The notes below the pieces were generated by a model. That model did no database searches and was not told where the DNA came from. It was given only the letters and a program-made list of their open reading frames with translations. A program made the translations under genes and the position numbers. Of a stretch of 32,000 nucleotides of DNA, positions 13,344-32,000 are shown in pieces (within the stretch, counting starts at the first letter, position 1; each line of letters starts with the position of its first letter). The stretch covers positions 3,780,001 through 3,812,000 of the forward strand of contig JAIZWK010000001.1 of NCBI GenBank assembly GCA_021498095.1, given 5' to 3'. The stretch is from Candidatus Harpocratesius repetitus. GTDB lineage: Archaea; Asgardarchaeota; Lokiarchaeia; Sigyniarchaeales; Promethearchaeaceae.

Positions 13344-13350
13344 ACTGTAA
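13344..13350. repeat. Right target-site duplication ACTGTAA
   Basis: Identical to 11854-11860. Confidence 0.9.
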
Positions 13351-13359
13351 TAATCATTG

Positions 13360-14334: not shown

Positions 14335-14668
14335 TTATTATTACTTATGCAATGATGGAATTCTAAGATCTGATCTTATTAATCTATATTTCTAAGCACA
14401 TTTTTTTTAGAAGTTAAATGAAAAACATTTAAATAGGTAAAGTGTTCGTTTTTAAATAACAGTGTAAGAAGTAATATTTTTAGTAAATTTTCGAATTCTC
14501 TAATGAAATTGAATCAGTGAACAAGAAAAAAAAGAGAAAAATTTTACAAAATTTCGACAAAAAATGTTGAAAAATAACCTTTAAATCTTGGTTGTCCTTT
14601 TTGTTCATATTGGATCGCATGATTTGAATATCATTGAGAAGATCGAGAATTCCGTGGGCTGACTGACA

Positions 14669-15169
14669 GTGGAAATGGAGATAAATCTGAATATGAATCT
14701 GAATGGGAATGAAATAATCCCGCAAAGCCTTGAACAAATGATTGATGAGGCTATAGAGCAGGATTTTGTCGAAGTAAAAGCCATTTCAGAGGAAGATCGG
14801 AATAATGAAATGTATAAAGCCATGATGTTTTCATTCGATTCAGCCCATGTCGAGGTATTGTATGAAAGAAAAGTGGTTAGTGAGGATAAACTCTCATTAG
14901 TTATCCCGCATGAACAATTTCTATTTGGATTTCGCCCAACTGATGGCCTTTGCATATTTTCAAATAAAGAAGCACATAAAGAAATGTTGTGTGATGGTCC
15001 TGTACGGGAATTAGCGCGCCAATGCCCATTAACCCAATCTTTGCAATATATTTTAGTACCCCTTAATAATTTTCAAGTATGGTCATATATTCCAGTTTGC
15101 TGCTCAAATGAAGATTCTTGCCCGTTGAAAACTCGACCATTCAATTATCGTAGAGATTTATTTAATTAA
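14669..15169 (+). CDS. Hypothetical protein with Cys-rich C-terminal half
   Basis: 166-codon ORF between known genes with protein-like composition. Cys at LCIF, MLCD, QCPL, VCC, SCP. Start GTG 14669 or ATG 14675. Confidence 0.6.
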   Translation: MEMEINLNMNLNGNEIIPQSLEQMIDEAIEQDFVEVKAISEEDRNNEMYKAMMFSFDSAHVEVLYERKVVSEDKLSLVIPHEQFLFGFRPTDGLCIFSNKEAHKEMLCDGPVRELARQCPLTQSLQYILVPLNNFQVWSYIPVCCSNEDSCPLKTRPFNYRRDLFN

Positions 15170-15225
15170 AAATAGAATCTTTGAAATTGAATTAAATTTT
15201 AAAAAATCTTCATCATTATTTATTA

Positions 15226-16932
15226 TTAGCAGTTCATTGCGCGTTCTAATTGTGATTTTAACCAATTTGGTGATATATGATGAATTATCTTATTCCACGG
15301 TCGTTTTCCAAAAGGTAATTTTTGTAAGGTATGAAGATAATCGATTATTTGAGTTTGCCATACATTTTTAGGATCTGTACAATAGCGATACCATTGTTTT
15401 GGCTTCATTCCTTGATAATAACATTCTTCTATTAATGATGCAAAGTGTTCATTGCCCAAAGCGAGTACCATTTGCAAATAAGCTTCCCAAAGAGGCATAA
15501 AATCGAATTCAATCCAGGGATTTTTTTGGAGGGCTTTTTTTATATGTTTTATTTTCTTCTTTAAATTCGGCATTGACGGATCAAAATATTCTTCAAAAGC
15601 TACCTCCAATGGCGTATGTGCTTTAGGAATAAATGGATTAATGCTAAGTTTGATACCTCTTTTCCCAAAATTCATCTTCGCTAATTTTTCGACCAACATA
15701 ATTAATTCATCAATATCTTCTGGACTTTCGAATGGAAATCCTATAATTAAGTATATTTTAAGTGCTTTAATTTTCGCATCATGCAGATAAATTACTCCTT
15801 GAAGAATTTCTTTATTGGTGAGGTGTTTATTCAACTGTTTCCGCAAACGATCAGAACCTGTTTCAGGAGCAATGGTGACTGTTTTCATACCTCCCTTTCT
15901 AAGGATTTCTGCCATTTTTGGCGTTAATTTATCCACACGGATCGAAGGAACATTCAACCGCAATCCTTGTTGAAGAATGAATTCAGCCAAATCAATAAAA
16001 TTCTGATGATCTGTTACTGATGATCCTATCAATGCAATTCGTTCACAATCTGTAAGTTTTATACCAGATAAAATAATTTCTTTAAGGTTTTCTAAACTTC
16101 GATAACGATACGGTTTGACTTGGTTTCCAGTCATACAAAATCGGCAAATATGGGGACAACCACGCGCCACTTCCAAAAAGAAAGAATCATTAAAAGCAAT
16201 ATTTGAATTTAAAGATTGATTAACCGAATCAACTTTAAGTTTAATTTGAGCTAGTGGATGGGGTGTTCGATCTAATTCATAAGCAATGACATGATTAATG
16301 GTTTTTTCATGCATTTCAAAAAAGGGATCGCCTGGTAGCCAAAATCCTGCAATATTTGCCAAATCTTTGAAAAAAGCTGTTTTTATAGCTTGAAAATCCC
16401 TCAATTCAGGATTATCATAGTTACTTAACCAAGCTTCAATAAACTGTGCATTTACAGGTTCGATTTCTCCAACAAAGATTGCATCCATAAAATCCAAAAT
16501 AGGTAGAGGATTTGCCCGAATGATTGCTCCCCCAGCAATAATTACAGGGTATGAATCTGAAGAAATATTATCTATACTTTTTTTTTTCTCTCGATCATTT
16601 CTATAGAAAGGGATTCCAGCATTCTCTAAGAACCATAAGATGTGAGGATAATCTAATTCATAAGAAAGTGTAAAAGCAATTAGATCAAATGCTTCTAAAG
16701 GCATCTTATTTTCTAAAGAAAGCACATTTTGAAATAAATGACCACGAGGTAATGGTATTTTTGAATCAGGAAGAAAAAAACGTTCACAGATTATCCGTTC
16801 ATGTTCATTCCAGAGTGAATATAGCGTTTGTACAGTTAAACCAGCCATAGCAGAATAGCGATTAGGATAAACTAACGCGATTTTAAACATGCCTTCTTTC
16901 CATGGTTTTATTATGACATTTTTTTCTTGCAT
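15226..16932 (-). CDS. B12-binding-domain radical SAM protein (TIGR03960-like)
   Basis: IALVYPNRYSAM N-terminus, FTLSYELD, IIAGG, LEVARGCPHICRFC (CxxxCxxC), IAPETGS, PFIPKAHTP. Confidence 0.88.
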   Translation of the reverse strand: MQEKNVIIKPWKEGMFKIALVYPNRYSAMAGLTVQTLYSLWNEHERIICERFFLPDSKIPLPRGHLFQNVLSLENKMPLEAFDLIAFTLSYELDYPHILWFLENAGIPFYRNDREKKKSIDNISSDSYPVIIAGGAIIRANPLPILDFMDAIFVGEIEPVNAQFIEAWLSNYDNPELRDFQAIKTAFFKDLANIAGFWLPGDPFFEMHEKTINHVIAYELDRTPHPLAQIKLKVDSVNQSLNSNIAFNDSFFLEVARGCPHICRFCMTGNQVKPYRYRSLENLKEIILSGIKLTDCERIALIGSSVTDHQNFIDLAEFILQQGLRLNVPSIRVDKLTPKMAEILRKGGMKTVTIAPETGSDRLRKQLNKHLTNKEILQGVIYLHDAKIKALKIYLIIGFPFESPEDIDELIMLVEKLAKMNFGKRGIKLSINPFIPKAHTPLEVAFEEYFDPSMPNLKKKIKHIKKALQKNPWIEFDFMPLWEAYLQMVLALGNEHFASLIEECYYQGMKPKQWYRYCTDPKNVWQTQIIDYLHTLQKLPFGKRPWNKIIHHISPNWLKSQLERAMNC

Positions 16933-17485
16933 GATCCATTCATTCCTTTCACTCCACTCTCAATCTCAACAAGAAACGATATATTAACGATATATTTTTA
17001 ATTCTTGCATAAATAATCCATAACTTCACGCAGATAAATCACTTATCTTTATTTTGAAAAAATTATCAAATTATTAATCAATGATAATTTCACTTTTATC
17101 TTGAAATAGCGAATTTTAAAAGAAAATTTGGAATTGTTCTAATTTTGGGCTAAAAATCATGTGGATTTTCTAATCTTTTATTAAAATATTGAAATTATTT
17201 CAATCTTTAAATATTGAAACACATTTAAACAAAAATTAGAAATTTTTATCCAATATTCTAAAAAACGAGAGTTTAAAGCCGATTTATTATTTTATGGAAT
17301 GAGTATTAGAAGAATTATTTTTTGTATCTGGTAAAGTGAAATTAATTGAATATAATTGAATGTATTTGTAATTAAAAGAAATTGAATATATTCGAAATTA
17401 AAAGTATGCAAGTCACTGATCCAGATCAGATCTCAGTATTCTCTATGCTTAATATATACATCAGATAACATTCCTTGTTGATATT

Positions 17486-17800
17486 ATGAATCCAATCCGT
17501 TTCGATGATGAAGTCGATTACTACCTTACATTATTAGATAAATTTGAAACGAGTGTTTGCCAAAATAAAATAGACCTCGATACATTTTTCGCAAAAGAAA
17601 TCATAGATATCATGCTAGAATTAAAGCAGGAACGAGACAATATTCCACTAATGCTTAATATCACAAAAAACATGTTACTAATTCTTTTATCATTCTATCA
17701 TGAACAGCGAAATTTCAATAAATTTACATCATTTTGCGAATTAGAAGATTGTGATAAAGAACTAGTTAGAAGCAGATTTATCCCACTTATTTCAAATTAA
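17486..17800 (+). CDS. Hypothetical protein
   Basis: 104-aa ATG-started ORF filling an intergenic gap; no recognised motif. Confidence 0.55.
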   Translation: MNPIRFDDEVDYYLTLLDKFETSVCQNKIDLDTFFAKEIIDIMLELKQERDNIPLMLNITKNMLLILLSFYHEQRNFNKFTSFCELEDCDKELVRSRFIPLISN

Positions 17801-17858
17801 ATGATATAACAAGTATTGATATTGATATATTAATGATAATATAAGTTAGTGTTAAAAT

Positions 17859-18425
17859 TTAAAAGAAAATTTCACTAGTGCTTTTCTCGTCTTCTTCATT
17901 TTCAGCTTCTCCATCATCATCAAAATATTCACCTTTATCTTCAGATTTTAACATTTTTTCAATAAAACAAAATAACTTCTTTCCTTTAAGAATGTTAGAT
18001 AAATTCACAATATTCATCGAATCAATATATGGATTTTTTTTTAATTCAGCAATGAAATTATCATAATGTTCATCGTTTCTAAAGGTTGAAATGCAGTGAA
18101 TTTGCTCATCATCGCCAACAGCAGCAAATAATACCTCATTATATTGATCACTGACAAATTTCGCAAAACTTTCTAAAAACATCGTATCTAATTTACCAAT
18201 AACCATCTTTTTTAAACGAATAGAAAGAAGCTTATGTATTGTTAAGCCTATCTCAGTTGGGTTAACCACAATAGTATAACGCTCTAAGATATTTGATTCG
18301 CGAAGTTTATGTAAACGATGATATATGGTAGAAGTTTTCACGTTTAAATCGCGGGCAAGATTTTTTAAAGATACGCGAGCATTTTCTTCTAAAGCAGCAA
18401 GTAGTTTAATATCAATTTTATCCAA
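17859..18425 (-). CDS. Lrp/AsnC family transcriptional regulator with acidic C-terminal tail
   Basis: MDKIDIKLLAALEENARVSLKNLARDLNVKTSTIYHRLHKL HTH followed by YTIVVNP. TTG start preceded by a GGAGG Shine-Dalgarno. Confidence 0.9.
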   Translation of the reverse strand: MDKIDIKLLAALEENARVSLKNLARDLNVKTSTIYHRLHKLRESNILERYTIVVNPTEIGLTIHKLLSIRLKKMVIGKLDTMFLESFAKFVSDQYNEVLFAAVGDDEQIHCISTFRNDEHYDNFIAELKKNPYIDSMNIVNLSNILKGKKLFCFIEKMLKSEDKGEYFDDDGEAENEEDEKSTSEIFF

Positions 18426-18464
18426 AGATTTTATTCCTCCAAAAAATATTTATTTAAAGGCATG

Positions 18465-18480
18465 TCGACAAAAATGTCGA
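18465..18480. promoter_or_regulatory. Palindrome TCGACA-AAAA-TGTCGA, candidate Lrp autoregulatory site
   Basis: Perfect 6-bp arms around an A-rich centre, 40 bp upstream of the Lrp start. Confidence 0.5.
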
Positions 18481-18753
18481 TTAGATTTTTCTGTTGCATA
18501 CTTCAATCATAGATATGTTTTGTTAGAGTTTTTTTAACAAACTATATTATAATATTCACAAAATACCTAAATAAATATTGGTTAAATAACAACAAATAAC
18601 TCTTTTTTTTAATATCATGAATAATTTCTCTTTTTTCTCAGCTGATATTTATACTGAATATTATAACCAAAAGAAATATAAAAAGTAATCAAAAAAAGAA
18701 AAAATTCCTTTCAGCAACAATAGGAAGAAATAGATTTTTTTACGCACTTTTGC

Positions 18754-20063
18754 CTACAAATTTAACTCTTTTAACTCTTTACGAATAGTTTTTACCCGAT
18801 CAGGTGTCAACGTGTTCATTTTCGCAAAAATAATCAATCCTATAATCATAAAGATCATAGGCAATACACTCATATGAATGCGAATACCCCATTTAGCCAA
18901 TGGAGTTTGTTCTACATCGGATTTATTTACAAAACCTGTTACAGCATGAACAATGGCAAAACTTAATGCTTGCATAGCATTGTAATTGTATATCCCCAAT
19001 AACTTGTTGTGAAAGACATCCCAATTAATCCAACGATTATGACAACGGCTGCCCACATCAAAGCTTTCTGATTACTGTCTAACCTAACAGCAATACGACC
19101 CCAAAGTGGAACTGATATCAGCGCTCCGATCAGCATACCAGCAAATATCATGGTCGTATCGCTTTTATCTCCCGGAAGGATATAGTCGCCAACATAGTCA
19201 ACGGAGGCGCTCATACTCATTGTACATGCCTGATACAGGAAATAAAATAAGATAAATGCAACAAAATTCTTATGCGTAAATGCTTCTTTAAGTTGGATGA
19301 AAAAAGAATCTTCTTTTTCTTCCTTTGCTTTCTTTTCAACTGCAGCAATGTATCGTTCAATCATATCGAGATCTTCTCGAACACCAGGAAGCATTAAAAA
19401 GAAGAAAATAATTCCAATAATCGTGAAAATAACCGCATTTAATTGATAAGTGCTCGCATAATCATAATCAACAATGAACGTCGGCATTAGATTTCCAAGT
19501 GCAATTCCAATAACCCCAATAACTGTGGCAATCACGGCTGCATTGGCTCGAACTTTCTCTTTTCGGAACTTATCGGGGAATAGTGATTGATAATTTAATT
19601 CCCAGATGGAAAAGAAGAAATCATGAAGGCAAATTACCGATACCAACCATAGAAAAAGCCATCCTTGATTTGAACCTGGAGATTCAATAAATGGTTTCGG
19701 AACAATAAAGATAGGCAGTAAAGTAAATACCCAAATACCACCACCAAGAACGATCCATGGAAAGCGTCTTCCATATTTATAAGCAAATCGGGTCGGACGA
19801 ATGGTGAAGTAACCAATAATTGGGTCGTTAATAGCGTTCCAAATAGAATAAATGATTATTGCTAATCCGGTTAACCAACCATTTAATCCTAAGTTTGTCT
19901 CGTAGTATTTGTATATTAAAACGCTAAAAGCCGCCGAATAAAATTCAACCAAAAATTTGCCCGTTCCGTATGAGGTCATAGTTAAAAAAGAATGTTTTTG
20001 AGGTTCTGATGAATTCATATCCGCGTTGTTCTTTATTTCAGTCATAATTACTGTGTTCTCCAT
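18754..20063 (-). pseudogene. GPH/MelB-like MFS sugar-cation symporter disrupted by internal deletion and frameshift
   Basis: TM1-TM9 in ORF 18963-20063 (NAINDPIIG, GRRFPW, FPDKFR). TM11-12 (QALSFAIVHAVTGF...WGIRIHM) are in another frame. The junction at ~18976 lacks the second half of TM10 and the cytoplasmic loop. Confidence 0.8.
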
Positions 20064-20080
20064 TAAAAGAATATTTCAAA

Positions 20081-20120
20081 TTATTAATCAATTATAATCA
20101 ATTATAATCAATTTTCAACC
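20081..20120. repeat. Short 10-bp tandem repeat (ATTATAATCA) in the divergent MFS/ABC promoter region
   Basis: ttattaatca attataatca attataatca attttcaacc. Confidence 0.6.
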
Positions 20121-20265
20121 ACAGAACTTAAAAAATCATCTAAAAAATCATCTTTGAAAAATCTTTATTTGAAAAAGGGAGAAATAATTTTTCATTTGAA
20201 AGCGGAATTGGATTTCTTTTCAATCGCAACTATTATTTAATAATAATAATTTGGATCGTTAACCG

Positions 20266-22029
20266 ATGACCGAACATTTATTACTAAAAAAATTTATTTC
20301 ATATTATCGCCCGCACCTTAAACTCTTTATACTTGATATGGTGTGTGCGTTTTTAATTGCTGCTTTAGATTTGGTATTTCCTCTTATTAGTGAAAGATTT
20401 TTAAAGGATTTCATTGTCAACTCCAATTTACGAATGATTTGGACCTTTGGTGGAATATTATTAGGATTATATTTAATTCGAACAGTTGCATTTTACATTA
20501 TGGCATATTGGGGCCATTTAGTAGGAGTTAACATGGAATTTGATATGCGTGCTGATTTATTTCGACACATTCAGAAATTAGACTCCGAATATTTTGATAA
20601 CACCAAAACTGGTCAAATCATGGCTCGACTTACAAATGATCTTCGCGATATCACTGAGCTGGCACATCATGGACCCGAGGATTTGTTTATCTCCATAATT
20701 GAGATAATTGGAACTTTTATTCTACTACTATTAAGAAGTTGGCTTCTTACGCTTATTCTTTTTGTATTTGTGGCAATTTTAATCTGGTTTACAGTTGGAA
20801 TGCGTACAACTATGTTGAAAGCGTTTAGAAATACGCGCCAAGAGCATGCTGAAATTAATTCTGTGCTCGAAAATTCAATTTCTGGCATCCGTTTATGCAA
20901 AAGTTTTGCAGCTGAACCTTATGAATTTGAAAAATTTGAGCATAATAACATTCGATATCGAAAATCTTACTATAAAGCATATCGAGTTATGGCAAATTAT
21001 GCTTCAGGAAGTAATTTTCTTACAGATATTTTAAGTTTGATTGCGTTAGTGGTTGGAGCAGTTTTTGTAGTCAAGGGAATTCAAGGATTAAGTAAGGAAC
21101 AATTGGTAACTTATCTTTTATTTACTAGCATTTTTGTGGCTCCAATTCGACGATTAGTTCAATTCACACAAATATTTCAATCAGGATTTGCCGGATTTAT
21201 ACGTTTTGGCGAAATTATGGATATTAAACCCAAAATAATCGATAGTCCTGAGGCTAAACCACTAGACAACATTCAAGGAAATATTGAATTTCGTAATGTA
21301 ACCTTCAAGTATAAGGATCAAACAAAACCGGTTCTTCATAACTTTAATTTATTTATTGAACAAGGAAAGACTGTAGCATTGGTTGGGCCCTCAGGAGTAG
21401 GAAAGACCACAATCACCCATTTAATTCCGAGATTCTATGAAGTAGATGAAGGTCAAATTTTACTTGATGGAAAAAATATCAAATCCATCGCAATTGACTC
21501 CCTGCGTAGCAATATTGGTTTTGTTCAACAAGATGTTATCGTTTTCTATGGAACAATCCGAGATAATATCATTTATGGAAAACCAGATGCAAGTGAAGAA
21601 GAAATAATTCAAGCAGCAAAACTTGCAAACATCCATGATTTTATCATGTCTTTACCTGATGGATACGATTCAATGGTTGGAGAGCGAGGTGTAAAACTTT
21701 CAGGCGGGCAAAAACAAAGATTAGCCATTGCTCGAGTATTTCTCAGAAATCCGCCTATACTTATTTTGGATGAAGCCACTTCTTCACTTGATACTGTTAC
21801 TGAATTGTTAATTCAAGATGCAATTATAAAACTGGCAAAAGGTCGAACCACAATAATAGTAGCACACCGATTGAGTACTATTAAAAACGCCGATGAGATT
21901 TTGGTGCTTACTGATGAAGGTATTGCCGAACGTGGGAACCATGATGAACTACTTGCACGAAACGGTCTTTATACCAATCTTTATAATGCTCAATTTGAAG
22001 GTTACCTACCTGATTTCATCGAAAAATAA
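20266..22029 (+). CDS. ABC exporter, fused permease/ATPase (MsbA/MdlB-like)
   Basis: N-terminal transmembrane domain; Walker A GPSGVGKTT, signature LSGGQKQ, Walker B ILILDE, H-loop VAHRLST. Confidence 0.95.
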   Translation: MTEHLLLKKFISYYRPHLKLFILDMVCAFLIAALDLVFPLISERFLKDFIVNSNLRMIWTFGGILLGLYLIRTVAFYIMAYWGHLVGVNMEFDMRADLFRHIQKLDSEYFDNTKTGQIMARLTNDLRDITELAHHGPEDLFISIIEIIGTFILLLLRSWLLTLILFVFVAILIWFTVGMRTTMLKAFRNTRQEHAEINSVLENSISGIRLCKSFAAEPYEFEKFEHNNIRYRKSYYKAYRVMANYASGSNFLTDILSLIALVVGAVFVVKGIQGLSKEQLVTYLLFTSIFVAPIRRLVQFTQIFQSGFAGFIRFGEIMDIKPKIIDSPEAKPLDNIQGNIEFRNVTFKYKDQTKPVLHNFNLFIEQGKTVALVGPSGVGKTTITHLIPRFYEVDEGQILLDGKNIKSIAIDSLRSNIGFVQQDVIVFYGTIRDNIIYGKPDASEEEIIQAAKLANIHDFIMSLPDGYDSMVGERGVKLSGGQKQRLAIARVFLRNPPILILDEATSSLDTVTELLIQDAIIKLAKGRTTIIVAHRLSTIKNADEILVLTDEGIAERGNHDELLARNGLYTNLYNAQFEGYLPDFIEK

Positions 22030-22040
22030 CCTTTTTGTTT

Positions 22041-22190
22041 TTTTCCAATTTTTTCCAAGTTTTTCTACCTTTTTCCAACATTTTCTAACTTTTTCCAATA
22101 TTTTCTAACTTTTTCCAATATTTTCTAACTTTTTCCAATATTTTCTAACTTTTTCCAATATTTCCATCTTTATCTAACTATTTTCAACTA
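22041..22190. repeat. 10-bp-period tandem repeat with 20-bp higher-order unit
   Basis: Twelve 10-mers of TTTTC(C/T)A-NNN from 22041 to 22160, including four exact copies of TTTTCTAACTTTTTCCAATA (22081-22160), plus degenerate copies to ~22190. Confidence 0.93.
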
Positions 22191-22219
22191 CTTATTCAAA
22201 ATTTTAAAAGATTAGTAAT

Positions 22220-22249
22220 AAAAAAAGAAGAACTCCTAATGCAAAGGAG
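22220..22249 (-). terminator. Hairpin plus U-tract after selD SECIS
   Basis: CUCCU-UUGCAUU-AGGAG followed by UUCUUCUUUUUUU on the minus strand. Confidence 0.5.
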
Positions 22250-22293
22250 GCTCGGGAGAAAACTCAAAGTTTACTTCTCTCCGTCGTAGCATT
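22238..22293 (-). promoter_or_regulatory. Eukaryote-like SECIS element in selD 3'UTR
   Basis: AAUGC/GCAUU helix I; A-CGAC...CGAG tandem G.A core; 8-bp helix II GGAGAGAA/UUUUCUCC; apical AAA 11 nt from the core. Lies 31 nt after the selD stop. Confidence 0.85.
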
Positions 22294-22324
22294 GAATTAC
22301 AAGATAATTTATTCCATTAAGATC

Positions 22325-23386
22325 TTAATATTCTTCAATTTCATGGTAGGTGATCTTATCATCAAATTTAACACCCTGTAGATCTTTTTCAATCTGTCCT
22401 ATCTCTATCCACCAAACACCAAAAGAATCCAACATGGAAGTGAAATCACTCCAAATGCTTGGATCAACTGCAATTAACATGGGACCTGCAATTTCCGCAG
22501 ATTCCCCTTCAGATAACCCATAACAAAAGAGATCATCCAACTCTAATGCATAAGCAATTGCAGGTAAATGAGTAATGCGTGCCCCCAAGTCGGTATTCAG
22601 AAGCATTTCTTCAAGATGACCTTTAAAACCGAAACCTGTAATATCCGTCATGGCATGAATATGAGAGAAAAACTTGCCAGCGTGAATTACATCAGGAATG
22701 GGTTTATTGCTAGTCGTCATGATTTTTGTAGCTATAGAAACGGCGCGTTCAATTCGTGTCAAATCAAAATTCTTCAACCATGCAATATCTGAATTTTTAG
22801 CACGATCCGCAGCCATTACGGGATGAATTCCCAAGGGTTTGGTTAATAAAAGCCGATCACTCGCTTTAATTCCACGTTTAAAGATTAAATGTGCAGTTTT
22901 TTCGATAGCACTTACACTTCCACCTAATAATGGCCATGGATTTTGAATAGTATGACCGCCTGAAATGTCAGCACCTAATGATTTAAGCAGATCTCGTGTT
23001 CCTTTGAGCATCTCCTCGGCATAACCTTTGGGAAGATCGGTGGGTAGTCCTAAGAAACAACTGTAGTTTAAGATACGGCGCGCATTTAGAGCATATATAT
23101 CATTTGTTACATTAACAGCTGCAATTTTTCCCATGATATATGGATCATCATGAATTGGAGTTACAATATCCAGATTGGTTAATAGACTATCTGTCTCAGA
23201 AATTGCAGTAATTGCGCAATCTTCTGCATCCGAATTAAGTCCGACTTGATTGAGTAGATTATTGAGATCAAGGGCAGGAAGTTTACAGGATCATCCATGA
23301 AGTTGAGTTTTTTCAGTTAATCTGAAGACAGAGTTTTTTGAAAGAATATTAAAATCGGACTGTCGTTCAAAATTTATTCGATTCAC
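22325..23386 (-). CDS. selD: Selenide,water dikinase (selenophosphate synthetase), selenoprotein with Sec at UGA 23291-23293
   Basis: The frame upstream of the track start continues FRLTEKTQLHG-UGA-SCKLPALDLNNLL...EDCAI...LDIVTPIHDDPY into MGKIAAVN. Downstream motifs GGHT, LLLTKPLG, DITGFG. About 353 aa from GTG 23386. Confidence 0.95.
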
Positions 23387-23472
23387 CTCCACTCCGTGAG
23401 TGCATGATTATAAGAAGAAATCAACCAAAAAAAACTGTGGTATTATTTAAAATTAATAAATTTAACTTCAAT

Positions 23473-26364
23473 TTACAAGATAATTTCCATTTCTTTTTGC
23501 ACGCTCGATAATTTTCCAAATGGGTTTTGGTAATTAATATTTAATAGCCAACGTTTTAATTCATAGCGCTTTTCCCTTTCTTTTTCAATTTTAAATACCC
23601 ATCTTAAAATTCGAGAGGTTTCTGGTTCAAATTCATGAATTATCAATTCAAGTGGATCACTTTGATTTGTTTGCAGTTTTAAAAAAGAAGGATGAATAAA
23701 GATTAGACTTAAATCATTCAAAAAGAATTTTGTTGGATTATGAAGACGGAGATCAAAAATAATTTTACTTCCAATAATTTCAACTTTTCTATGCAATTGT
23801 ATGAAATTTTCACCTAATGGTTTGTTGGGTTGAACCAATGCGTTATTTCGAATTTCTGCAAGAAGTTTGTGTTTCTTTAATAAATTAAATATAGAAGTCT
23901 TCAATTCTTCAATAGGAATTGAATATACTCGAGATAGTTGATATAAAGAAAGAGGATTCATATAACTTAAATATTCATTAATTTCAGCGCTGAAGATTTC
24001 TTCTTCAATAGCATCTTGAAATTTATCTAATAAGTCTTTTAATTCAATTTTTACATTATTCCAATGAAGCACATAATTTTGCAATTCTTCAGGATTTATT
24101 TGAGATAAGTCAATAGAATCAATTTTTTGATATATATTATCAATTTCTTTATTATACTCTTCAATTGTGTTAGAAATATTATCTATTGTCATTTTAACCA
24201 TATTACGCGCTTCAGCAAACCGACGTTTTTTAATTTCAAGAAATATGGGTTTTGTTAATTTATCAAAGCTTTCTTTAATCTCACGCAAATTTTGAATAGC
24301 TTGTAAAACAATACGTTGAAGATTACTATTTAGAAAATCAAATGTTATTTTCTTTTTCAAAATATTTTGATTATCATCCTTTATTTCGAGAGTTCTTTCT
24401 AAATCTTTGAAACGATAAATTACTGAAGAAAGATATTGTTGAACTTCAATCTTAACATCAACCCATAATAAGGTAACTTCTTTCAAAGCCTCTTTAAATT
24501 CCATATTTTGCATCCACAATTGCCCAATTTCAAATTCCAGGGTATAAAGTTCTTTCCGCACAAAAGAAATTTTTTCTAATAACTTTTCAGAAAGGGTAGA
24601 TTCAGATAAATTTTGATTTTCATGAAGTTGATTCTCAAGATCTTCGATTTCTTTGTAATTTTCATTCATTTGGTGAATTCTATTTGTTAATTTTTGAATT
24701 TCTTGCTTTAATTCATCTAAATATTTTTCACGTCCTTCTGAAAGTCTATTAATCATGATATATTTTACATCTGAAATATTCTCAAGAACTTCATCCTTTA
24801 TTTCTTTGAAATCTTGTACAATCTCCATAGAAAAACGTTTAAATTCGGAGTTATTTAAAAACGTCTCCATTTCATTTAGTTTTTCGACAATTCGATTACT
24901 CTCTTCTTCCATAAATACTTCTGCTTTTTGAAATTGATTTTCTTCTATCATTCTCTCAGATTCTTCACGCATATTTTGTATATAGGTCTGAAAATCTTCA
25001 AGTCCTTGATAAAATTCTTTTCGTTGTATTTCAATTTCTTTAATGTCTTCATCGATATTTTCAAATAAATTATGAATTTTTTCTAATGAAATATCAATCT
25101 CATCAAGCACATCGAGATCTTTCTCATCTTTTCGATAGTTTTGAAGATTTATAAAAGTCCATACTGCAACAGATTGTATATTCAGAATATAAGTCAAATC
25201 ACCTAAAAGTCTTATAGTTTGCCTTCTTTGGCGCCAATCATCCGGATTTAATCCTAAATACATACGTGCTAATTCTTCTTCAAATACATCTGATTTTTCC
25301 ATATAAATTTTAATCAAACAATCACTAATAAAATCTCTAAACTTTGAGCCTGAATCAATTAATTGCTGAATTAACTGAGGTAACATCTGATGCATGTTTT
25401 GCACAACAATGAATATTGTAGATTCAGTTATTCCTTCTAAAATATCTCTTGATACATCATTTTCTTCAAGATACTGTCTGAAAAATTGAAGTAATCCAGG
25501 ACCCTTTGATTTCCCCACTTTAACAAATGCATCAATGGTTTTTGTCTGAACCATCATAATAGAATCAGAAAACATATCAATCAAACGGTGGAAGATTATT
25601 GTAAAATCAGTGAAAAATAAATCGCCTATTTCTCCGACTATCCAAATTCCTTTTTCGCGTATTTCCCAATCTGAATCATTTAAGATAGATAATAAGATAT
25701 CAACCATTTCTGGACCAGATAAGTGGTAGCCTAATGCTTTTACTGCTTCTGTAGTTAAACCTCTGATTTCTTCATCAGGATCTCGAATTAATTTAGAAAA
25801 ACTTGCTTGAAATATTTCGAGTAGTCTTTTTGGAGGATGAGAACTAGGAACCAAAAATTCCAGCATACCTTCTATAGCTTTTGCTCTAACCCTCCAAGAT
25901 TTATCCTCAAACATCTTTGAATAAGTTATGTAAAGATCAGGATAATGATCAAATGATTTCTTAAGTACTTCAGCAAGTAGTTTAACTGCTGATTCTCGAA
26001 CCTTTTTATCTGTATCGAATAGTTTTGATTCACACATTTCAATAATTGGATCAAATTTCGCAATATCAGCAATTCTAAAGATTTTTCTAAGAATAAGAAG
26101 TGTTTCTTGACGAACCCAATATTCTTTATTATTCAACAACTCTGGAATATATTTCATAGTCAATTCTATGGTTAATGGAGTTTTATCACAAAGAGCATCA
26201 TAAACTTCCAAACAATAAGCAAGGTGGTCTTCATCTTCTGATTGTAAGGTATTAACCAGAAAAGAATTGGTTCTTTCTATCGCAATTTCATACTGGCGAT
26301 TCTTAATTGCTTGCTGAATAAATTCAATGAGATTGTTCGCATTATTCAAAATTTCGGGGTTCAT
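23473..26364 (-). CDS. Large HEAT-repeat protein with helical middle region, PCI-like winged helix and C-terminal Ig-like/appendage domain
   Basis: About 9 HEAT repeats (LLNNKEYWVRQET, LFDTDKKVRESA, MFEDKSWRVRAKA, LIRDPDEEIRGL, ILNDSDWEIREKG, LNPDDWRQRRQT), an E/K/Q-rich helical region, and a beta-rich last ~115 aa. Confidence 0.85.
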   Translation of the reverse strand: MNPEILNNANNLIEFIQQAIKNRQYEIAIERTNSFLVNTLQSEDEDHLAYCLEVYDALCDKTPLTIELTMKYIPELLNNKEYWVRQETLLILRKIFRIADIAKFDPIIEMCESKLFDTDKKVRESAVKLLAEVLKKSFDHYPDLYITYSKMFEDKSWRVRAKAIEGMLEFLVPSSHPPKRLLEIFQASFSKLIRDPDEEIRGLTTEAVKALGYHLSGPEMVDILLSILNDSDWEIREKGIWIVGEIGDLFFTDFTIIFHRLIDMFSDSIMMVQTKTIDAFVKVGKSKGPGLLQFFRQYLEENDVSRDILEGITESTIFIVVQNMHQMLPQLIQQLIDSGSKFRDFISDCLIKIYMEKSDVFEEELARMYLGLNPDDWRQRRQTIRLLGDLTYILNIQSVAVWTFINLQNYRKDEKDLDVLDEIDISLEKIHNLFENIDEDIKEIEIQRKEFYQGLEDFQTYIQNMREESERMIEENQFQKAEVFMEEESNRIVEKLNEMETFLNNSEFKRFSMEIVQDFKEIKDEVLENISDVKYIMINRLSEGREKYLDELKQEIQKLTNRIHQMNENYKEIEDLENQLHENQNLSESTLSEKLLEKISFVRKELYTLEFEIGQLWMQNMEFKEALKEVTLLWVDVKIEVQQYLSSVIYRFKDLERTLEIKDDNQNILKKKITFDFLNSNLQRIVLQAIQNLREIKESFDKLTKPIFLEIKKRRFAEARNMVKMTIDNISNTIEEYNKEIDNIYQKIDSIDLSQINPEELQNYVLHWNNVKIELKDLLDKFQDAIEEEIFSAEINEYLSYMNPLSLYQLSRVYSIPIEELKTSIFNLLKKHKLLAEIRNNALVQPNKPLGENFIQLHRKVEIIGSKIIFDLRLHNPTKFFLNDLSLIFIHPSFLKLQTNQSDPLELIIHEFEPETSRILRWVFKIEKEREKRYELKRWLLNINYQNPFGKLSSVQKEMEIIL

Positions 26365-26523
26365 CTTGGTACTCCAATCAAGAGTTTCCTTTGTATTATC
26401 CTACAATTCACATATAAAGATGCTTTCTTATATTTTTTTATTTTTCTACTAAAAGATTTGGAAATTCTCCTTTAGATCATAAACGCGAAAAACTCATAAA
26501 TTATGGGTTATTTTGAATTATTG

Positions 26524-28089
26524 ATGGCGAAGAAGAAAAAAAAAGCCGTAGTCGATCATGATGATATATCAGCGAAAGATTTAGGTATTACTCCAGAAAA
26601 GAAAGAAACTAAAAAATCCACTAAAAAAACAACCTCGAAGAAGAAAAGCACGAAAAAAACTACTACAAAGAAATCTACATCGAAAAAATCGAGTGTAAAA
26701 AAAACTAGTGCAAAAAAGACTTCTGTAAAAAAGTCAACTTCGAAATCTAAAAAATCATCCTCAAAAAGAGCTTCAGTAACTAAGAAATCAACACGTAAAA
26801 AAACAGCAAAAAAGATTACTAAAAAACAAGAATTCATTCAAAGTTCCTGCAATGTGGGTTTAGTAGGACATGTAGATCATGGAAAGACCACATTGGTAAA
26901 ATCACTCTCTGGAACTTGGACTGAACGCTACAGTGATGAACAAAATCGTGGAATTACAATTAAACTTGGTTATGCAGAAACTGTTATTTTAGAATGTCCT
27001 AATTGTCATTTATTAATATCTGAGAATCTCGCGAACAAAGCAAGAAAAAGTAAGAAAGATCCCAAAGGGATGTGTCCGAATTGTCAAATTCCTTTGGAAT
27101 TTAGAAGACGGTTAAGTTTTGTTGATGCTCCAGGTCATGAAATCCTTATGGCAACTATGCTTTCAGGTGCATCATTAATGGATGGTGCTATTCTTTTAGT
27201 AGCCGCAAATGAAGATTGTCCCCAACCTCAAACACGTGAACACTTGGCTGCTTTAGAAATTGCAAAAATTGAAAATATTATCATTGTTCAAAATAAAATT
27301 GATTCAGTAGGTAGAGAACGTACTTTAGAACATTATCGACAAATTAAAGCATTTGTTAAGGGAACAATTGCAGAAAATGCACCAATTATCCCTGTTTCAG
27401 CGATATTTGATGCAAATGTGGATAAGGTAATCGAAGCAATTGAAGAATACATCCCTTCTCCAGAATTAGATGACGAGTCAGATTTTCTGTTTAATGTAGC
27501 TCGATCTTTTGATGTAAATCGACCAGGAACAAAAATTGATGAATTAAAAGGTGGAGTTATTGGGGGTAGTATTATATCTGGAGTAGTCCACGTTGGAGAT
27601 GAAATCGAAATTCGCCCAGGAATCAAAGATCCAGAAACGGGTAAATATCGTCCAGTAATTACTAAAGTTGCTTCAATTTATGAAAGCTCTCATTCATTAG
27701 AGAGTGCTCGACCAGGTGGTTTAATTGCATTTGGAACACTTCTTGATCCTGCAACTACTCGAACCGATCAACTTATTGGAAGTGTAGTTGGTGCTGTTGG
27801 AACTTTACCAGAAATAAAAACTACTATTCAAATTGAAACCCACTTATTAGATACAGTATTAGGTGCAGAAGAAGAGATAAAAGTGCAACCAATTAAAAAT
27901 AATGAATTATTGATGATTGTTGTTGGTACTTCTCTCTCAGCTGGTATTGTTACAAAAATTGGGAAGAAAAATGTTATTACCTTAAAATTAAAAAGACCAC
28001 TTTGTGCAATGGAAGGATCAATTACTGCAATTAGCAGGAGGATTAATAATCGATTCCGGTTAATTGGATACGGTTATTTAATGGAATAA
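26524..28089 (+). CDS. eif2g: Translation initiation factor 2 subunit gamma with Lys-rich N-terminal extension
   Basis: GHVDHGKT, RGITIKLGY, CPNC...CPNC zinc ribbon, DAPGH, QNKID, RSFDVNRPG, ISRRINNRFRLIGYG. ATG at 26524, alternative ATG at 26503. Confidence 0.97.
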   Translation: MAKKKKKAVVDHDDISAKDLGITPEKKETKKSTKKTTSKKKSTKKTTTKKSTSKKSSVKKTSAKKTSVKKSTSKSKKSSSKRASVTKKSTRKKTAKKITKKQEFIQSSCNVGLVGHVDHGKTTLVKSLSGTWTERYSDEQNRGITIKLGYAETVILECPNCHLLISENLANKARKSKKDPKGMCPNCQIPLEFRRRLSFVDAPGHEILMATMLSGASLMDGAILLVAANEDCPQPQTREHLAALEIAKIENIIIVQNKIDSVGRERTLEHYRQIKAFVKGTIAENAPIIPVSAIFDANVDKVIEAIEEYIPSPELDDESDFLFNVARSFDVNRPGTKIDELKGGVIGGSIISGVVHVGDEIEIRPGIKDPETGKYRPVITKVASIYESSHSLESARPGGLIAFGTLLDPATTRTDQLIGSVVGAVGTLPEIKTTIQIETHLLDTVLGAEEEIKVQPIKNNELLMIVVGTSLSAGIVTKIGKKNVITLKLKRPLCAMEGSITAISRRINNRFRLIGYGYLME

Positions 28090-28157
28090 ATAGATAATTG
28101 AACATATAATTGAGTGAAAAAACACAAAAAAAGGGAACTACATTAAGGAAAATTTAA

Positions 28158-28646
28158 TTACAAATAAAATGAAGCTCCAGGATCATCATCCGAGTCTTCA
28201 TCTTCATCATCATTCTTTTTCTTTTTCTTAAAGAGTTGGTCCATGATATTTTGGGATAATTCATTTAATGTATCTGGATCTAAATCGAAGCCCATATCTT
28301 TTAAGTCTTTCATTTTCCCAAAGGGGACGACTTTTACATCAAATTTAGTATTTTTAAGCTGTTGGGCTTTAATTCTACGCTCTTTTTCGCGATGTGCCAA
28401 GTTTCTCTTTATTTCTTTAGCATGTTTTTTATAGAGAAGATCAATAATTGTTTGAATTAGCTGTTTTTCTAATTCTTCTGCTTCTAGCAGCAATAATTCA
28501 TCGGCGTTATATTTTTTTTCAAGAATTTGGATGGCTTCATCAATTGTAGCATGATTTGGAGTTATGGTCGTATTTCTCCGCACTTTATCAGATACAATTG
28601 CCCAATTAATTATCGCCCAAATGGGGGATCGGGAATTATCATTCAT
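28158..28646 (-). CDS. Hypothetical helical protein with acidic tail ending in FYL
   Basis: 162-aa ATG-started ORF; ends KKKKKNDDEDEDSDDDPGASFYL. Confidence 0.75.
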   Translation of the reverse strand: MNDNSRSPIWAIINWAIVSDKVRRNTTITPNHATIDEAIQILEKKYNADELLLLEAEELEKQLIQTIIDLLYKKHAKEIKRNLAHREKERRIKAQQLKNTKFDVKVVPFGKMKDLKDMGFDLDPDTLNELSQNIMDQLFKKKKKNDDEDEDSDDDPGASFYL

Positions 28647-29352
28647 AATTTTCGCTAAGTACTAGATCGAATTTTGCTTTTAAAAGTTAAGCATTTAGAA
28701 TAATTCGACTATTTTTAAGGATAAAGGATCAATTAAGAGAAGCCATATTTTTTAAATTATTTCCAAATTATCTTTCAAATATTTATTTTTGGCAACTTAT
28801 TTGAAATTTATATGCAAAGTATGCAGTATTTTAAAGCTTTTGACAAGGAAAAGCAGGAATATGCATAAATTGATATTTTTTATAAAACTCTCAAACTGGC
28901 AAAAAATATACTTTCCGCAGTTACAGTTGCTATCAAGAAAATACAAGACTATGTGTGCAAAAGTTATATCTATTTATCCTGCGGAGAATATAAATAGGGT
29001 GATATAGACTCGCGTGCATTTAACTGTTCCTAAAACACATGAAGGTTTAGTATAGTGACTTCGGGCATAAATTACAATCACAAATAAACCCGAAATCTTA
29101 TGAATTACCATTGTTCCACACCGATTTTGCCCAAAAATTCTATTTAATGTATAGAACAATTCAATAATTAAACGATTATTTCAATTAAACGAAAAATGGG
29201 GGAAAAAAATTCAAACCAAGGTGTCAATGAATTGATTCTTCGTAATTAAAAATAGCCAATAATTCTACTTTTTTGAAAAAATTATCTTAATTTTAAAGTT
29301 AAGCGGTATTTAATATTGTAAAAAGTAATCTTATTCTTTCAAGTGGATTATC

Positions 29353-30384
29353 ATGGCAATACTTAAGCACCAGGGGGAAATTTCCCCTAATTTATATATG
29401 ATTGACACAATGCAGTTTAATGTTTCTCATATAACAACTGTTTTCTGCTATTACGATGGAAAAAATGCATTACTGATGGATATTGGAACAACTGATAATG
29501 TTCAAAATGTATTGAGAAATCTGAAAAAATTTAAAATTCCCATTGAACATTTGAGAGGAATTGCATTAACCCACTATCATTTTGATCATGCTGGTGGTGC
29601 CACTAAATTATGGAAGAAATTGCATAAGAAAAATCTTGATTTTAAGATATATACCACAAAGATTACAAAAGAAAAACTTCAAAATGCAAATTCTCATGTA
29701 ACGGGCGCTACAACAACTTTCGGTGAATTTGTTGGAACTATGAAGCCAATCCCAAAAGAATTTGAAGAAGAAGCCTTTATAATCTTAGATCAAAATAATA
29801 GAGATAAAAATCGTGATAATAAAATTCCAATTGAATTTGAATCAAATGTAGAAATCAAACTTATTCCTTCTCCAGGACACAGTCCAGATCACGTGTGTCC
29901 TGCAGTATTCACAAATTCTTCCAAATCTCCCGATTTTCTTTTTGGAGGAGAAGCTGTGGGTACTTTTTACAATGAAACTCAGTTAATATCTGCATCAACT
30001 TCCATGCCTCCAAATTTTCAGTACGAAATTTATTTGGAATCACTTAAAAATATTGCAAAAATTAATCCAGAAATACTAGGAGTATGCCACTATGGTGCTA
30101 TAAGTGGAAAATCCGATGTGCAATATTATTTAGATGATCAAATTAAATACATGGAAGATTTACGAAAAGCAATAATAAAACATTATGCAGAGGAACCCAG
30201 TGTGCGCTATGTTATTGAAGAATTGAAGAAAGATCAACTTCATATAAAAAATAGGATAGGAAACCGATTTACAAATGATCCAGTTAGTGAAAGATTTCTC
30301 AACAATCTTCAATTGGCTTTAACTTATGGTATAATGATTGATCTTGGATATAGAAATTCAAAATATGAAAAAAGAAGCGTTTAG
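29353..30384 (+). CDS. MBL-fold metallo-hydrolase
   Basis: THYHFDHAG (HxHxDH), PGHSPDH, GGEA, CHYG. Confidence 0.92.
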   Translation: MAILKHQGEISPNLYMIDTMQFNVSHITTVFCYYDGKNALLMDIGTTDNVQNVLRNLKKFKIPIEHLRGIALTHYHFDHAGGATKLWKKLHKKNLDFKIYTTKITKEKLQNANSHVTGATTTFGEFVGTMKPIPKEFEEEAFIILDQNNRDKNRDNKIPIEFESNVEIKLIPSPGHSPDHVCPAVFTNSSKSPDFLFGGEAVGTFYNETQLISASTSMPPNFQYEIYLESLKNIAKINPEILGVCHYGAISGKSDVQYYLDDQIKYMEDLRKAIIKHYAEEPSVRYVIEELKKDQLHIKNRIGNRFTNDPVSERFLNNLQLALTYGIMIDLGYRNSKYEKRSV

Positions 30385-30407
30385 ACGCAGATCAACAATT
30401 TATGAAT

Positions 30408-32000
30408 CTATTTCATTTGCAAAATAATTTCATCTATAATATCTTGAAAATTCAAGTCTGAATTTGAAAAGAAGCATTGAACTGAAGCTTTTTTGCCTCC
30501 ACCTTTACCTTGAAATTTCTCAATAACAGGTTTAAAGTATGCAGTTAAATCAATATCTGGGGAGTTTTCATTGCGTAATGCAATGACATTCCACCCTTTT
30601 GCACTCTGACCCCCAAGAATTACAATGAGGTTTTTTTCTTTTTTTAAGAGTTTTTTAGCAAGATTAATGAGTAATTTATTATCCACCTCTTTATAATAAG
30701 CAGAAATAAGAGAGCATTTGGAAAGTTCTTGAATTGAGTTTAATAAATCTTGAATATTCTTTTCTCCCATAATTTGACTGATTTTTTGAATATTTTGCTT
30801 CATTGTTTCCCATTCTTGCTTAAATTTCTGAATTCTTGTAACTAAGCTTTCAATGGAACTTCCAAGTTCTTTACTTAATATTTTAAGGGGATCTTCATCC
30901 GAAGGATTAAATTCAGATAATTCTAAGGCAGATGGTTCAACTACTCCTTTATTTTTTGCTTTTCTTAATTGTTTCCATTTGTAAATCAATTCACGACAAC
31001 GAGTAATCAAGTTTTCTTCAGATGTTTCAAGAATTTCAGATAATTTATGTCGAATTTCAGAATAATGGGCTAGTAATTTTTCAGTGGCTTCTCCTGCAGT
31101 AAAAGTTAATCTAACAATTCCATCTTGAATTTTTTGAGACTTTATAATCTTTATTCTTCCAATCTCAGCAGTGTTATTTACATGTGTACCTCCACAAGCT
31201 TCGATGTCCACCTCTGGAATTTCAACAATCCTTAGTTTTTGACCTGGAACTGCCCCACCTTGATATAATCCCATCCCATAATTTTCTTCTGCTTCAGTTC
31301 TTTCCATAAATCGATGATCTAATTTAATTTCCTTTTGGACTATTTCATTAGCTTTTTCTTCTATTCGATGAAGGTCTTCTTCAGAAATATTTTCAAAATG
31401 GGTTATATCCAAATGTGCTTTTTCAAGAGTCTTCTTAGCACCTGCTTGGTTAATATGATTTCCTAAAACGGCTCTTGCGGCAGCATTCACAACATGAGTG
31501 GCACTATGATGAAAAGTAAGAAGATTTCTGCGATTTTGATCAATTTTTACTTGAACTTTATCTCCTTCTTTAAAATTGGGAGGTTTATTAAGAATATGCA
31601 CTATTGTATGTCCAAGAGTAATGACATCTTTAAATGGAACACCATTTATCCATCCATTGTCGTGCAACTGCCCACCAGAAGTCGGATAGGCACAACTTTG
31701 GTCCAAAATTACAGCCCAAGCATCTTGTTTTCGATTAGTTTTCGATTCATTTTCATTTTCATTTTTATTATCATTTTCTTCATCAGAAAATTCATGATTA
31801 ATTGGTTGAATCATTAATACTTTTGCAGAATTTTCATATTTTCGATAATCATCATAATATAATCGTTTGGTTGGTGGAAGATTATCAATAGAAATGTCAA
31901 GAGCTTTATGTGTGGCATGAATTTGTGAGACTTGTTCATGTAAAGCAATTACTTTCTTATAAAAATCATCAGGGATTTCAATGTTTATTCCACGCTTTTT
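30408..32000 (-). CDS. alaS: Alanyl-tRNA synthetase, C-terminal part (5'-truncated by window edge)
   Basis: The frame is open to the window end (KKRGINIEIPDDFYKK...TKRLYYDD). YPTSGGQLHD, editing motifs HHSATH and CGGTH, C-Ala GKGGGK. Confidence 0.95.
   Translation of the reverse strand, partial: KKRGINIEIPDDFYKKVIALHEQVSQIHATHKALDISIDNLPPTKRLYYDDYRKYENSAKVLMIQPINHEFSDEENDNKNENENESKTNRKQDAWAVILDQSCAYPTSGGQLHDNGWINGVPFKDVITLGHTIVHILNKPPNFKEGDKVQVKIDQNRRNLLTFHHSATHVVNAAARAVLGNHINQAGAKKTLEKAHLDITHFENISEEDLHRIEEKANEIVQKEIKLDHRFMERTEAEENYGMGLYQGGAVPGQKLRIVEIPEVDIEACGGTHVNNTAEIGRIKIIKSQKIQDGIVRLTFTAGEATEKLLAHYSEIRHKLSEILETSEENLITRCRELIYKWKQLRKAKNKGVVEPSALELSEFNPSDEDPLKILSKELGSSIESLVTRIQKFKQEWETMKQNIQKISQIMGEKNIQDLLNSIQELSKCSLISAYYKEVDNKLLINLAKKLLKKEKNLIVILGGQSAKGWNVIALRNENSPDIDLTAYFKPVIEKFQGKGGGKKASVQCFFSNSDLNFQDIIDEIILQMK

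Follow-up and report, generated by a model that had tools for sequence, protein, structure and literature searches.

A stretch of 32,000 nucleotides from the genome of Candidatus Harpocratesius repetitus (assembly GCA_021498095.1, contig JAIZWK010000001.1, a single contig of 4.36 Mb, positions 3,780,001 to 3,812,000; the window) contains an uninterrupted open reading frame (ORF) of 963 codons at 23473–26364 on the minus strand, the product of which (P0001; the scaffold protein) joins a HEAT-repeat trunk to a long helical rod, a winged helix and a terminal β-sandwich. The locus was flagged in an original prediction, made from the letters and an ORF list, as a fusion of HEAT, PCI-like and adaptin-ear-like domains and a candidate ancestral coat or adaptor subunit. 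We confirm that the scaffold gene is genuine and conserved among Loki-type Asgard archaea and that it encodes a large soluble protein, and find that its winged helix and sandwich form a unit homologous to a module of a pan-Asgard protein family; its architecture is probably the product of domain shuffling. The protein and its parts lie as follows:

23473–26364, minus strand: complete ORF of the HEAT–rod–PCI–ear scaffold protein, 963 aa plus stop (ORF list, translation, homologues and AlphaFold2 model)
25066–26364, minus strand: HEAT-repeat α-solenoid, residues 1–433, with 24 helices (3–433) making about 10–12 repeats
23962–25056, minus strand: helical rod, residues 437–801 (AlphaFold2 secondary structure, predicted local distance difference test (pLDDT) mostly 75–90)
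23827–23961, minus strand: winged helix of the PCI/UFL1 class, residues 802–846, three helices plus a hairpin
23476–23814, minus strand: Ig-like β-sandwich of the GAE/appendage-sandwich type, residues 851–963, eight strands (856–962) without a platform subdomain

Database searches recover homologues over the full length at identities that fall from 93% to ~15%, with lengths of ~960–1000 aa. The nearest named relative belongs to Candidatus Harpocratesius (93% identity), NEF87_003957 of Ca. Lokiarchaeum ossiferum is among the orthologues, and very divergent full-length members (15–30% identity, 963–998 aa) include one labelled Sigynarchaeota; conservation of this depth rules out a chance ORF. 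Taken part by part (HEAT trunk, rod, winged helix, sandwich), identity to L. ossiferum is 51, 48, 41 and 59%, and to one distant member 28, 29, 26 and 31%. The four parts are therefore about equally conserved, implying constraint on the entire chain. The protein is acidic, and no transmembrane or hydrophobic segment is predicted in it, so a membrane-protein reading was rejected. The public sequencing runs that carry this stretch are of DNA only (one may come from the source sample), with no RNA run listed, and a scan with bacterial-type promoter and terminator models, which are not applicable to an archaeon, gave nothing above shuffled sequences. The peptides quoted in the original prediction are present in the translation.

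A whole-protein profile was searched against a sample of 301 Asgard genomes spanning the phylum. Full-length scaffolds occur in 73 of the 75 genomes of the window's own order (Promethearchaeales by NCBI names), with 5/6 and 68/69 in the two families sampled, and are normally single-copy per genome. Outside this order the 301-genome sample yielded HEAT-region matches only and no full-length scaffold, and none was found in the Heimdall-, Hod-, Thor- and Odin-type genomes searched; a profile of the C-terminal region, run over Asgard genomes, returned the same distribution. An ORF of ~1120 aa beside MCM in sister-family genomes was considered as a paralogue and rejected: it is an unrelated all-HEAT protein (L031:2252–5608, plus strand; L032:4507–7899, minus strand), encoded directly upstream of the MCM helicase gene on the same strand.

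HEAT trunk and helical rod

The AlphaFold2 model of the whole scaffold protein, built on 29 homologues, has a mean pLDDT of 86, and a separate model of residues 780–963 reaches 88. HEAT membership of the trunk was judged by tandem helix–turn–helix repeats of ~40 aa, the D-x-D-x-x-V/I-R signature and the Pfam thresholds (Pfam clan TPR). Both relevant Pfam models exceed their cut-offs (HEAT, 57.1 bits against 23.5; HEAT_2, 43.5 bits against 27.7), making the trunk a genuine HEAT-repeat solenoid. The original prediction placed about nine repeats at ~26300–25090, and the model agrees well, with its 24 short helices (residues 3–433) extending the array over nucleotides 25066–26364.

The trunk is a generic HEAT solenoid, and adaptins are not singled out among its relatives. 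Against PDB sequences, the family profile matches the AP-1 β1 trunk best (E 9.7e-7), followed by INTS4 (2e-6) and PP2A-A. Pfam models matched among the 29 members are led by Cnd1 (26/29, best E 6e-11) and INTS1_R4 (25/29), then the HEAT models of GCN1 (14/29) and EF3 (11/29), SCD (9/29), PDS5 (6/29, best E 2e-13) and finally Adaptin_N (3/29, best E 1.2e-11); P0001 itself has no match to Adaptin_N (PF01602) at E<=1. Foldseek searches with the full model rank INTS4 (top PDB match, E 6.6e-12), INTS7, PP2A-A and karyopherins first, and the ESM Atlas returns bacterial PBS-lyase-type HEAT clusters alongside γ-COP for the full-length fold. Matches to AlphaFold database (AFDB) clusters include AP-2 α, γ-COP and β-COP, with alignments that span trunk to ear, at TM-scores of 0.16–0.24. 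Because generic HEAT solenoids dominate these full-length fold searches, adaptin ancestry is not settled by them.

The rod, the long charged helical region of the original prediction, is acidic in composition (22% D+E and 14% K+R over helices 437–801), runs for ~365 aa as nine modelled helices of 38, 28, 70, 31, 38, 35, 13, 34 and 44 aa, and carries two invariant tryptophans, W634 and W768. It is confidently folded in the model, which places no flexible hinge: across residues 437–846, pLDDT drops below 50 solely at 583–587. A rod profile searched against Pfam and PDB sequences gave coiled-coil noise only, a feature search of the ESM Atlas gave no usable match, and a homodimer prediction for residues 437–850 scored 0.00, a value uninformative either way on self-association.

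The winged helix–sandwich unit and its relatives

The winged helix opens with an invariant N803–P804. P0001 itself has no Pfam PCI match. When the winged-helix fragments of 21 members were compared with Pfam, PCI was matched by 17 (best E 7e-6), eIF3L/Paf67 by 11, UFL1 by three and DDRGK by two, with every other winged-helix family matched by three members at most; one relative exceeds the PCI gathering score (22.7 against 22 bits). DDRGK1, UFL1, a CSN entry and a TREX-2 chain make up all four winged-helix rows among the top 50 fold matches, and the fold can be superimposed on solved PCI winged helices. PDB sequence searches place the PCI regions of RPN5, eIF3e and CSN1 first, at insignificant E-values (0.14–0.37) that act as pointers only. 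Assignment to the PCI/UFL1 class is thus supported by family votes and fold matches, as well as by homology to the 60.5-bit PCI module described below, and the modelled domain coincides with the PCI-type winged helix originally called at ~23975–23830.

The PCI winged-helix fold builds the proteasome lid, CSN and eIF3, and we know of no multi-PCI complex in archaea. The PCI subunits of those assemblies have TPR-like helical repeats before the winged helix and a bundle helix after it, whereas in the AlphaFold2 models of the scaffold the winged helix is preceded by rod helices of 34–44 aa and leads directly into the β-sandwich, with neither a TPR-like subdomain before it nor a bundle helix after it. 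At least three further proteins with PCI-type matches are encoded in the window's genome. One 1471-aa protein (contig ~2787.7–2792.1 kb, plus strand; L034:1672–6087) has two separate PCI-type winged-helix matches (37.8 bits) and no other Pfam domain.

For the sandwich, 25 of the top 50 Foldseek matches in the PDB are the BBSome GAE domain, the AP-2 α appendage, the γ-adaptin/GGA ear and the COPI appendage, the others in that set being TRAP subunits, complement MG domains and transglutaminase domains. Among Swiss-Prot models, AP-3 δ, BBS9, β-COP, BBS1, AP-1 γ and AP-2 α account for 19 of the top 30 sandwich matches. Alpha_adaptinC2 is the sole Pfam family with more than one sandwich match (3/21 members, best E 1.4e-4, sub-threshold); GAE_BBS1, DUF11 and NPCBM_assoc each appear as a lone weak match, and a sandwich profile searched against PDB sequences found insignificant arrestin and YbgC matches only. 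These results support a sandwich that is nearest, narrowly, to the GAE/appendage type; its homology to adaptin ears is not proven. The ear-like strand pattern originally read into the final ~115 aa therefore survives as a modelled sandwich (856–962), and the outcome named beforehand as refuting it, matches to generic CARDB/Ig folds only, is not what the searches returned, since appendage and GAE folds lead by a small margin. An NPF tripeptide at 947–949 was considered as an EH-binding motif and rejected, as it lies in the last β-hairpin turn and is unconserved in distant members. In the BBSome, the GAE domain of BBS1/2/7/9 follows a coiled coil, with β-propellers N-terminal to it and a platform and an α domain after it, an arrangement unlike that of the scaffold, and we found no sequence-level link to the BBSome beyond the one weak GAE_BBS1 match.

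The closest relatives of the two domains taken together are archaeal. In the ESM Atlas, the nearest clusters are Asgard PCI/UFL1/DDRGK proteins, archaeal hypothetical proteins that pair the same winged helix with a sandwich, and CARDB/DUF11 proteins. Archaeal proteins of 314–432 aa also combine a winged helix with an Ig domain. The window's genome itself encodes a 756-aa protein (contig ~350.9–353.2 kb, minus strand; L033:1911–4181) that scores 60.5 bits with PCI and also matches UFL1 and DDRGK, and in which a Cys-rich N terminus is followed by arrayed UFL1/DDRGK/PCI winged helices and then by an Ig sandwich, with a helical tail at the end. A profile of the last 204 residues of the scaffold aligns with this protein along the winged helix as well as the sandwich (hhalign 92%, E 5.4e-7), and the C-terminal profile aligns over 161 columns with a 15-sequence alignment of the pan-Asgard family of ~790 aa to which the 756-aa protein belongs (hhalign 95.8%, E 7.1e-9). 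The counterpart in that family is the last winged helix of the array together with the sandwich. Separately, the sandwich gives 80% (E 1.5e-5) and the winged helix 27% (E 6.5e-4).

Members of the pan-Asgard family are 52–55% identical across metagenome-assembled genomes of Loki, Thor, Hod, Heimdall, Hermod and Odin type, a level across classes that is unusually high for an Asgard-specific protein, and Vps28 is present in many of them. The family matches a fusion type already in the literature: a preprint (Liu et al. 2020, 10.1101/2020.10.19.343400) and Makarova et al. 2024 (PMC10936438) describe Asgard proteins that fuse UFL1/PCI winged helices with adaptin C-terminal-like domains and Vps28, and ascribe them to extensive domain shuffling. 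Makarova et al. also report other ESCRT-linked proteins of archaea in which PCI-like helical domains lie beside adaptin-like Ig domains. Scaffold and family are both soluble Asgard multidomain proteins that share the homologous winged helix and sandwich unit and, in the first strands, a G-x-x-[IL]-x-F-x-[ILV]-x-[ILV]-x-N pattern. The scaffold differs in having one winged helix rather than about five, in lacking the Zn-finger-like Cys cluster and Vps28-C, in its HEAT trunk and 365-aa rod, both missing from the family, and in its restriction to one order when the family spans Asgard classes. It shares a module with the family and is not a member of it.

Shorter sections of the sandwich profile find Asgard proteins in which the sandwich is combined with TPR repeats or Zn ribbons. 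Tandem genes in another Asgard family (f9; L035:5713–7937, L036:752–3227) encode proteins of 360–420 aa that match the first half of the sandwich profile in their middle (E 1e-5 to 1e-7), with a LysW/NZF-like Zn ribbon at the end, and a 621-aa TPR protein (L037) bears the same sandwich, a domain that is promiscuous in Asgard archaea.

Gene neighbourhood

The scaffold gene is flanked by two genes of known function:

26365–26502, no strand assigned: AT-rich divergent intergenic region between the scaffold gene and the eIF2-γ gene (from the sequence)
26503–28089, plus strand: aIF2/eIF2 γ with a Lys-rich N-terminal extension (NCBIfam eif2g_arch, 573 bits; Pfam GTP_EFTU and eIF2_C)
22325–23386, minus strand: selD, selenophosphate synthetase (NCBIfam SelD), with an in-frame TGA (selenocysteine, Sec) at 23291–23293

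The ORF coordinates bear out the 138-bp divergent region that had been described, which lengthens to 159 bp if eIF2-γ starts at its second ATG, and the NCBIfam match identifies the downstream gene on the same strand as selD, as had been said. The N-terminal part of SelD is reached only by reading the TGA as Sec, which gives LHG-U-SCKLP at the catalytic position; it follows that this is a selenoprotein SelD and that the organism presumably has the full Sec machinery. The Lys-rich extension of eIF2-γ (~100 aa, 26503–26830) has a weak match to Pfam HC2 (histone-H1-like), and because a homologue on a JGI contig (L003) gives the same match, at least some of the family has kept this extension.

Across loci, the two flanks are kept to different extents. 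The divergent pairing with eIF2-γ is found in seven of the eight own-family loci, L. ossiferum included, the two genes lying two genes apart in the eighth, and in none of the 14 sister-family loci; there, the upstream co-directional genes encode a NOG1-like GTPase, a hydantoinase-like protein, an amino-acid kinase and two MaoC dehydratases. The gene immediately downstream of the scaffold, on the same strand, is selD in 11 of those 14 sister-family loci, despite scaffold identity of ~25%, and in most own-family loci. selD is not adjacent in L. ossiferum or in one genus (g7), which has selD elsewhere. In terms of the synteny check that had been proposed, adjacency to selD is thus widely kept and not obligatory, while the eIF2-γ pairing is kept only in the window's family. 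Relative to the conserved flank (a 162-aa gene, a metallo-β-lactamase-fold gene and AlaRS), the selD–scaffold–eIF2-γ block is inverted as a unit between the window (compared over 13000–32000) and L. ossiferum or the JGI contig. All of these loci come from a single order, so the gene order may simply be inherited and is a weak lead only. Several sister-family genomes (L017, L018, L019 and L023) have two tandem selD-like genes of ~290–320 aa each after the scaffold gene. The 162-aa protein at 28158–28646 (minus strand) has no Pfam family and is conserved, at 44–45% identity to its counterparts; in L. ossiferum and L003 it keeps its position beside the lactamase-fold gene.

Origin and possible role of the scaffold

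Since the winged helix–Ig unit is homologous to the pan-Asgard family module, domain shuffling within Asgard archaea best explains the architecture. We consider it probable that the scaffold protein is a lineage-specific, soluble interaction scaffold made in this way, when the Lokiarchaeial lineage added a HEAT trunk and a rod to the pre-existing winged helix–Ig unit. The protein would then act as a hub for protein–protein interactions, in which the HEAT solenoid would hold one set of partners and the rod would serve as a rigid spacer that may also drive oligomerization. By analogy with the lid, CSN and eIF3, the PCI-type winged helix could dock onto other winged-helix proteins; by analogy with adaptin ears, the sandwich could bind short peptide motifs. 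Such a hub would most likely sit within the ESCRT/ubiquitin-like sorting network, where the related module is found. Earlier publications already cover the domain types and how Asgard archaea shuffle them, and Eme et al. 2023 state that no fusions of Asgard adaptin domains were found; this four-part architecture was not found in the literature searched.

Several observations weigh against this interpretation. P0001 itself falls below the Pfam thresholds for PCI and Alpha_adaptinC2, so that both assignments come through relatives, profiles and predicted folds, and the Pfam PCI model (PF01399) also matches in 4 of 14 ordinary prokaryote control genomes, making a weak PCI match unspecific by itself. 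The lead of appendage-type folds over generic Ig, MG and CARDB folds is less than one Z unit. Homology of the winged helix–Ig unit is compatible with donation in either direction between the two families, the hub mechanism is inferred from domain types, and nothing in the gene neighbourhood (selD, eIF2-γ and housekeeping genes) points to ESCRT or sorting.

A more specific proposal is that the scaffold functions in archaea as the analogue of coat or sorting adaptors, with trunk and ear on one chain, whose winged helix and ear would dock the pan-Asgard Vps28-linked PCI protein or ESCRT components while trunk and rod recruit cargo or a GTPase. We regard this as unlikely; if true, prokaryotes would have their first adaptor of trunk-plus-appendage type, and a PCI-type assembly would exist outside eukaryotes.

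Quite unlikely, too, is a role tied to translation or Sec metabolism, with the protein as an eIF3-like PCI/HEAT platform acting with eIF2-γ or as a partner of SelD. The widely kept selD, the own-family pairing with eIF2-γ and the inversion of all three genes as a block speak for such a role, and it could draw further on eIF3e and eIF3L as the best PCI-type matches and on the GCN1 and EF3 HEAT models. Yet these last matches reflect generic HEAT and winged-helix similarity, and what is left is an argument from neighbours only, within a single order in which gene order may be inherited rather than selected, with eIF2-γ not nearby in the sister family and with the scaffold persisting in L. ossiferum and genus g7 without an adjacent selD.

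The reading closest to the original prediction takes the scaffold as a proto-adaptin, a true homologue of AP/COPI large subunits in which trunk and ear share common ancestry and serve as a membrane coat or cargo adaptor. The order of parts is co-linear, with the HEAT trunk first and the sandwich C-terminal, the best PDB sequence match of the family profile is the AP-1 β1 trunk, three members match Adaptin_N, the AFDB alignments to AP-2 α, γ-COP and β-COP run from trunk to ear, and the sandwich is nearest to GAE/appendage domains. However, INTS4, PP2A-A, karyopherins, Cnd1/PDS5 and bacterial PBS-type HEAT proteins match the trunk equally well or better, and TM-scores to adaptins are low. Adaptins have an Adaptin_N trunk of ~600 aa, in contrast to the 433 aa of the scaffold, which are not specifically adaptin-like; AP/COPI large subunits have a disordered hinge where the scaffold continues with its folded rod of 365 aa and then the PCI winged helix; and, compared with AP, COPI and GGA ears, that of the scaffold has no platform subdomain and a similarity below the Pfam threshold. 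AP and COPI large subunits work in a heterotetramer with a second large subunit and with σ and μ subunits, whereas no σ or μ partners were identified for the scaffold; PF01217 and PF02883 have no match in the window's genome, a negative that is uninformative as the control genomes hold no positive either. Beyond one Lokiarchaeial order, the 301 sampled genomes hold no full-length copy, and the winged helix–Ig module is closer to an archaeal non-adaptin family. Common descent with adaptins is therefore very unlikely in our judgement: the scaffold resembles an adaptor large subunit in layout, and descent from or to adaptins is not shown.

Least likely is a chromatin or RNA scaffold of the HAWK/condensin or Integrator INTS4 type with a winged helix that binds nucleic acid or a kleisin-like partner, which would account for the Cnd1, PDS5 and SCD matches and for INTS4 as top Foldseek and second-best sequence match, but the same canonical-HEAT similarity reaches adaptins, PP2A and bacterial proteins, INTS4 is absent among the C-terminal-module matches, no SMC, kleisin or nuclease gene is adjacent, and the PCI class to which the winged helix belongs is a protein-binding one. 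A 2026 preprint (10.64898/2026.10.28.762692) describes an 'INTS4 cluster' of 57 mostly Lokiarchaeial proteins, which may include the scaffold family.

Set against the original prediction, the per-domain fold comparison and the phyletic profile leave its three domain calls standing and do not support the 'candidate ancestral coat/adaptor': the full-length protein was found only in a single order of Lokiarchaeia and in a divergent copy that carries a Sigynarchaeota label, the trunk is generic, the linker is folded, the lead of the ear is below one Z unit and the eIF2-γ pairing holds at the level of a family. Asgard genomes are being searched for precursors of the eukaryotic trafficking machinery, and the scaffold puts a HEAT trunk, an ear-like sandwich and a PCI-class winged helix on one chain; the evidence warns against reading it as an adaptin ancestor and favours seeing it as a further example of how Asgard archaea recombine a few interaction modules. 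Its winged helix–Ig unit ties it to a Vps28/ESCRT-linked protein family, and as a near-universal, single-copy gene in an order of cultured Lokiarchaea it is experimentally approachable. The partners of the scaffold would show whether such modules served as sorting adaptors before eukaryotes.

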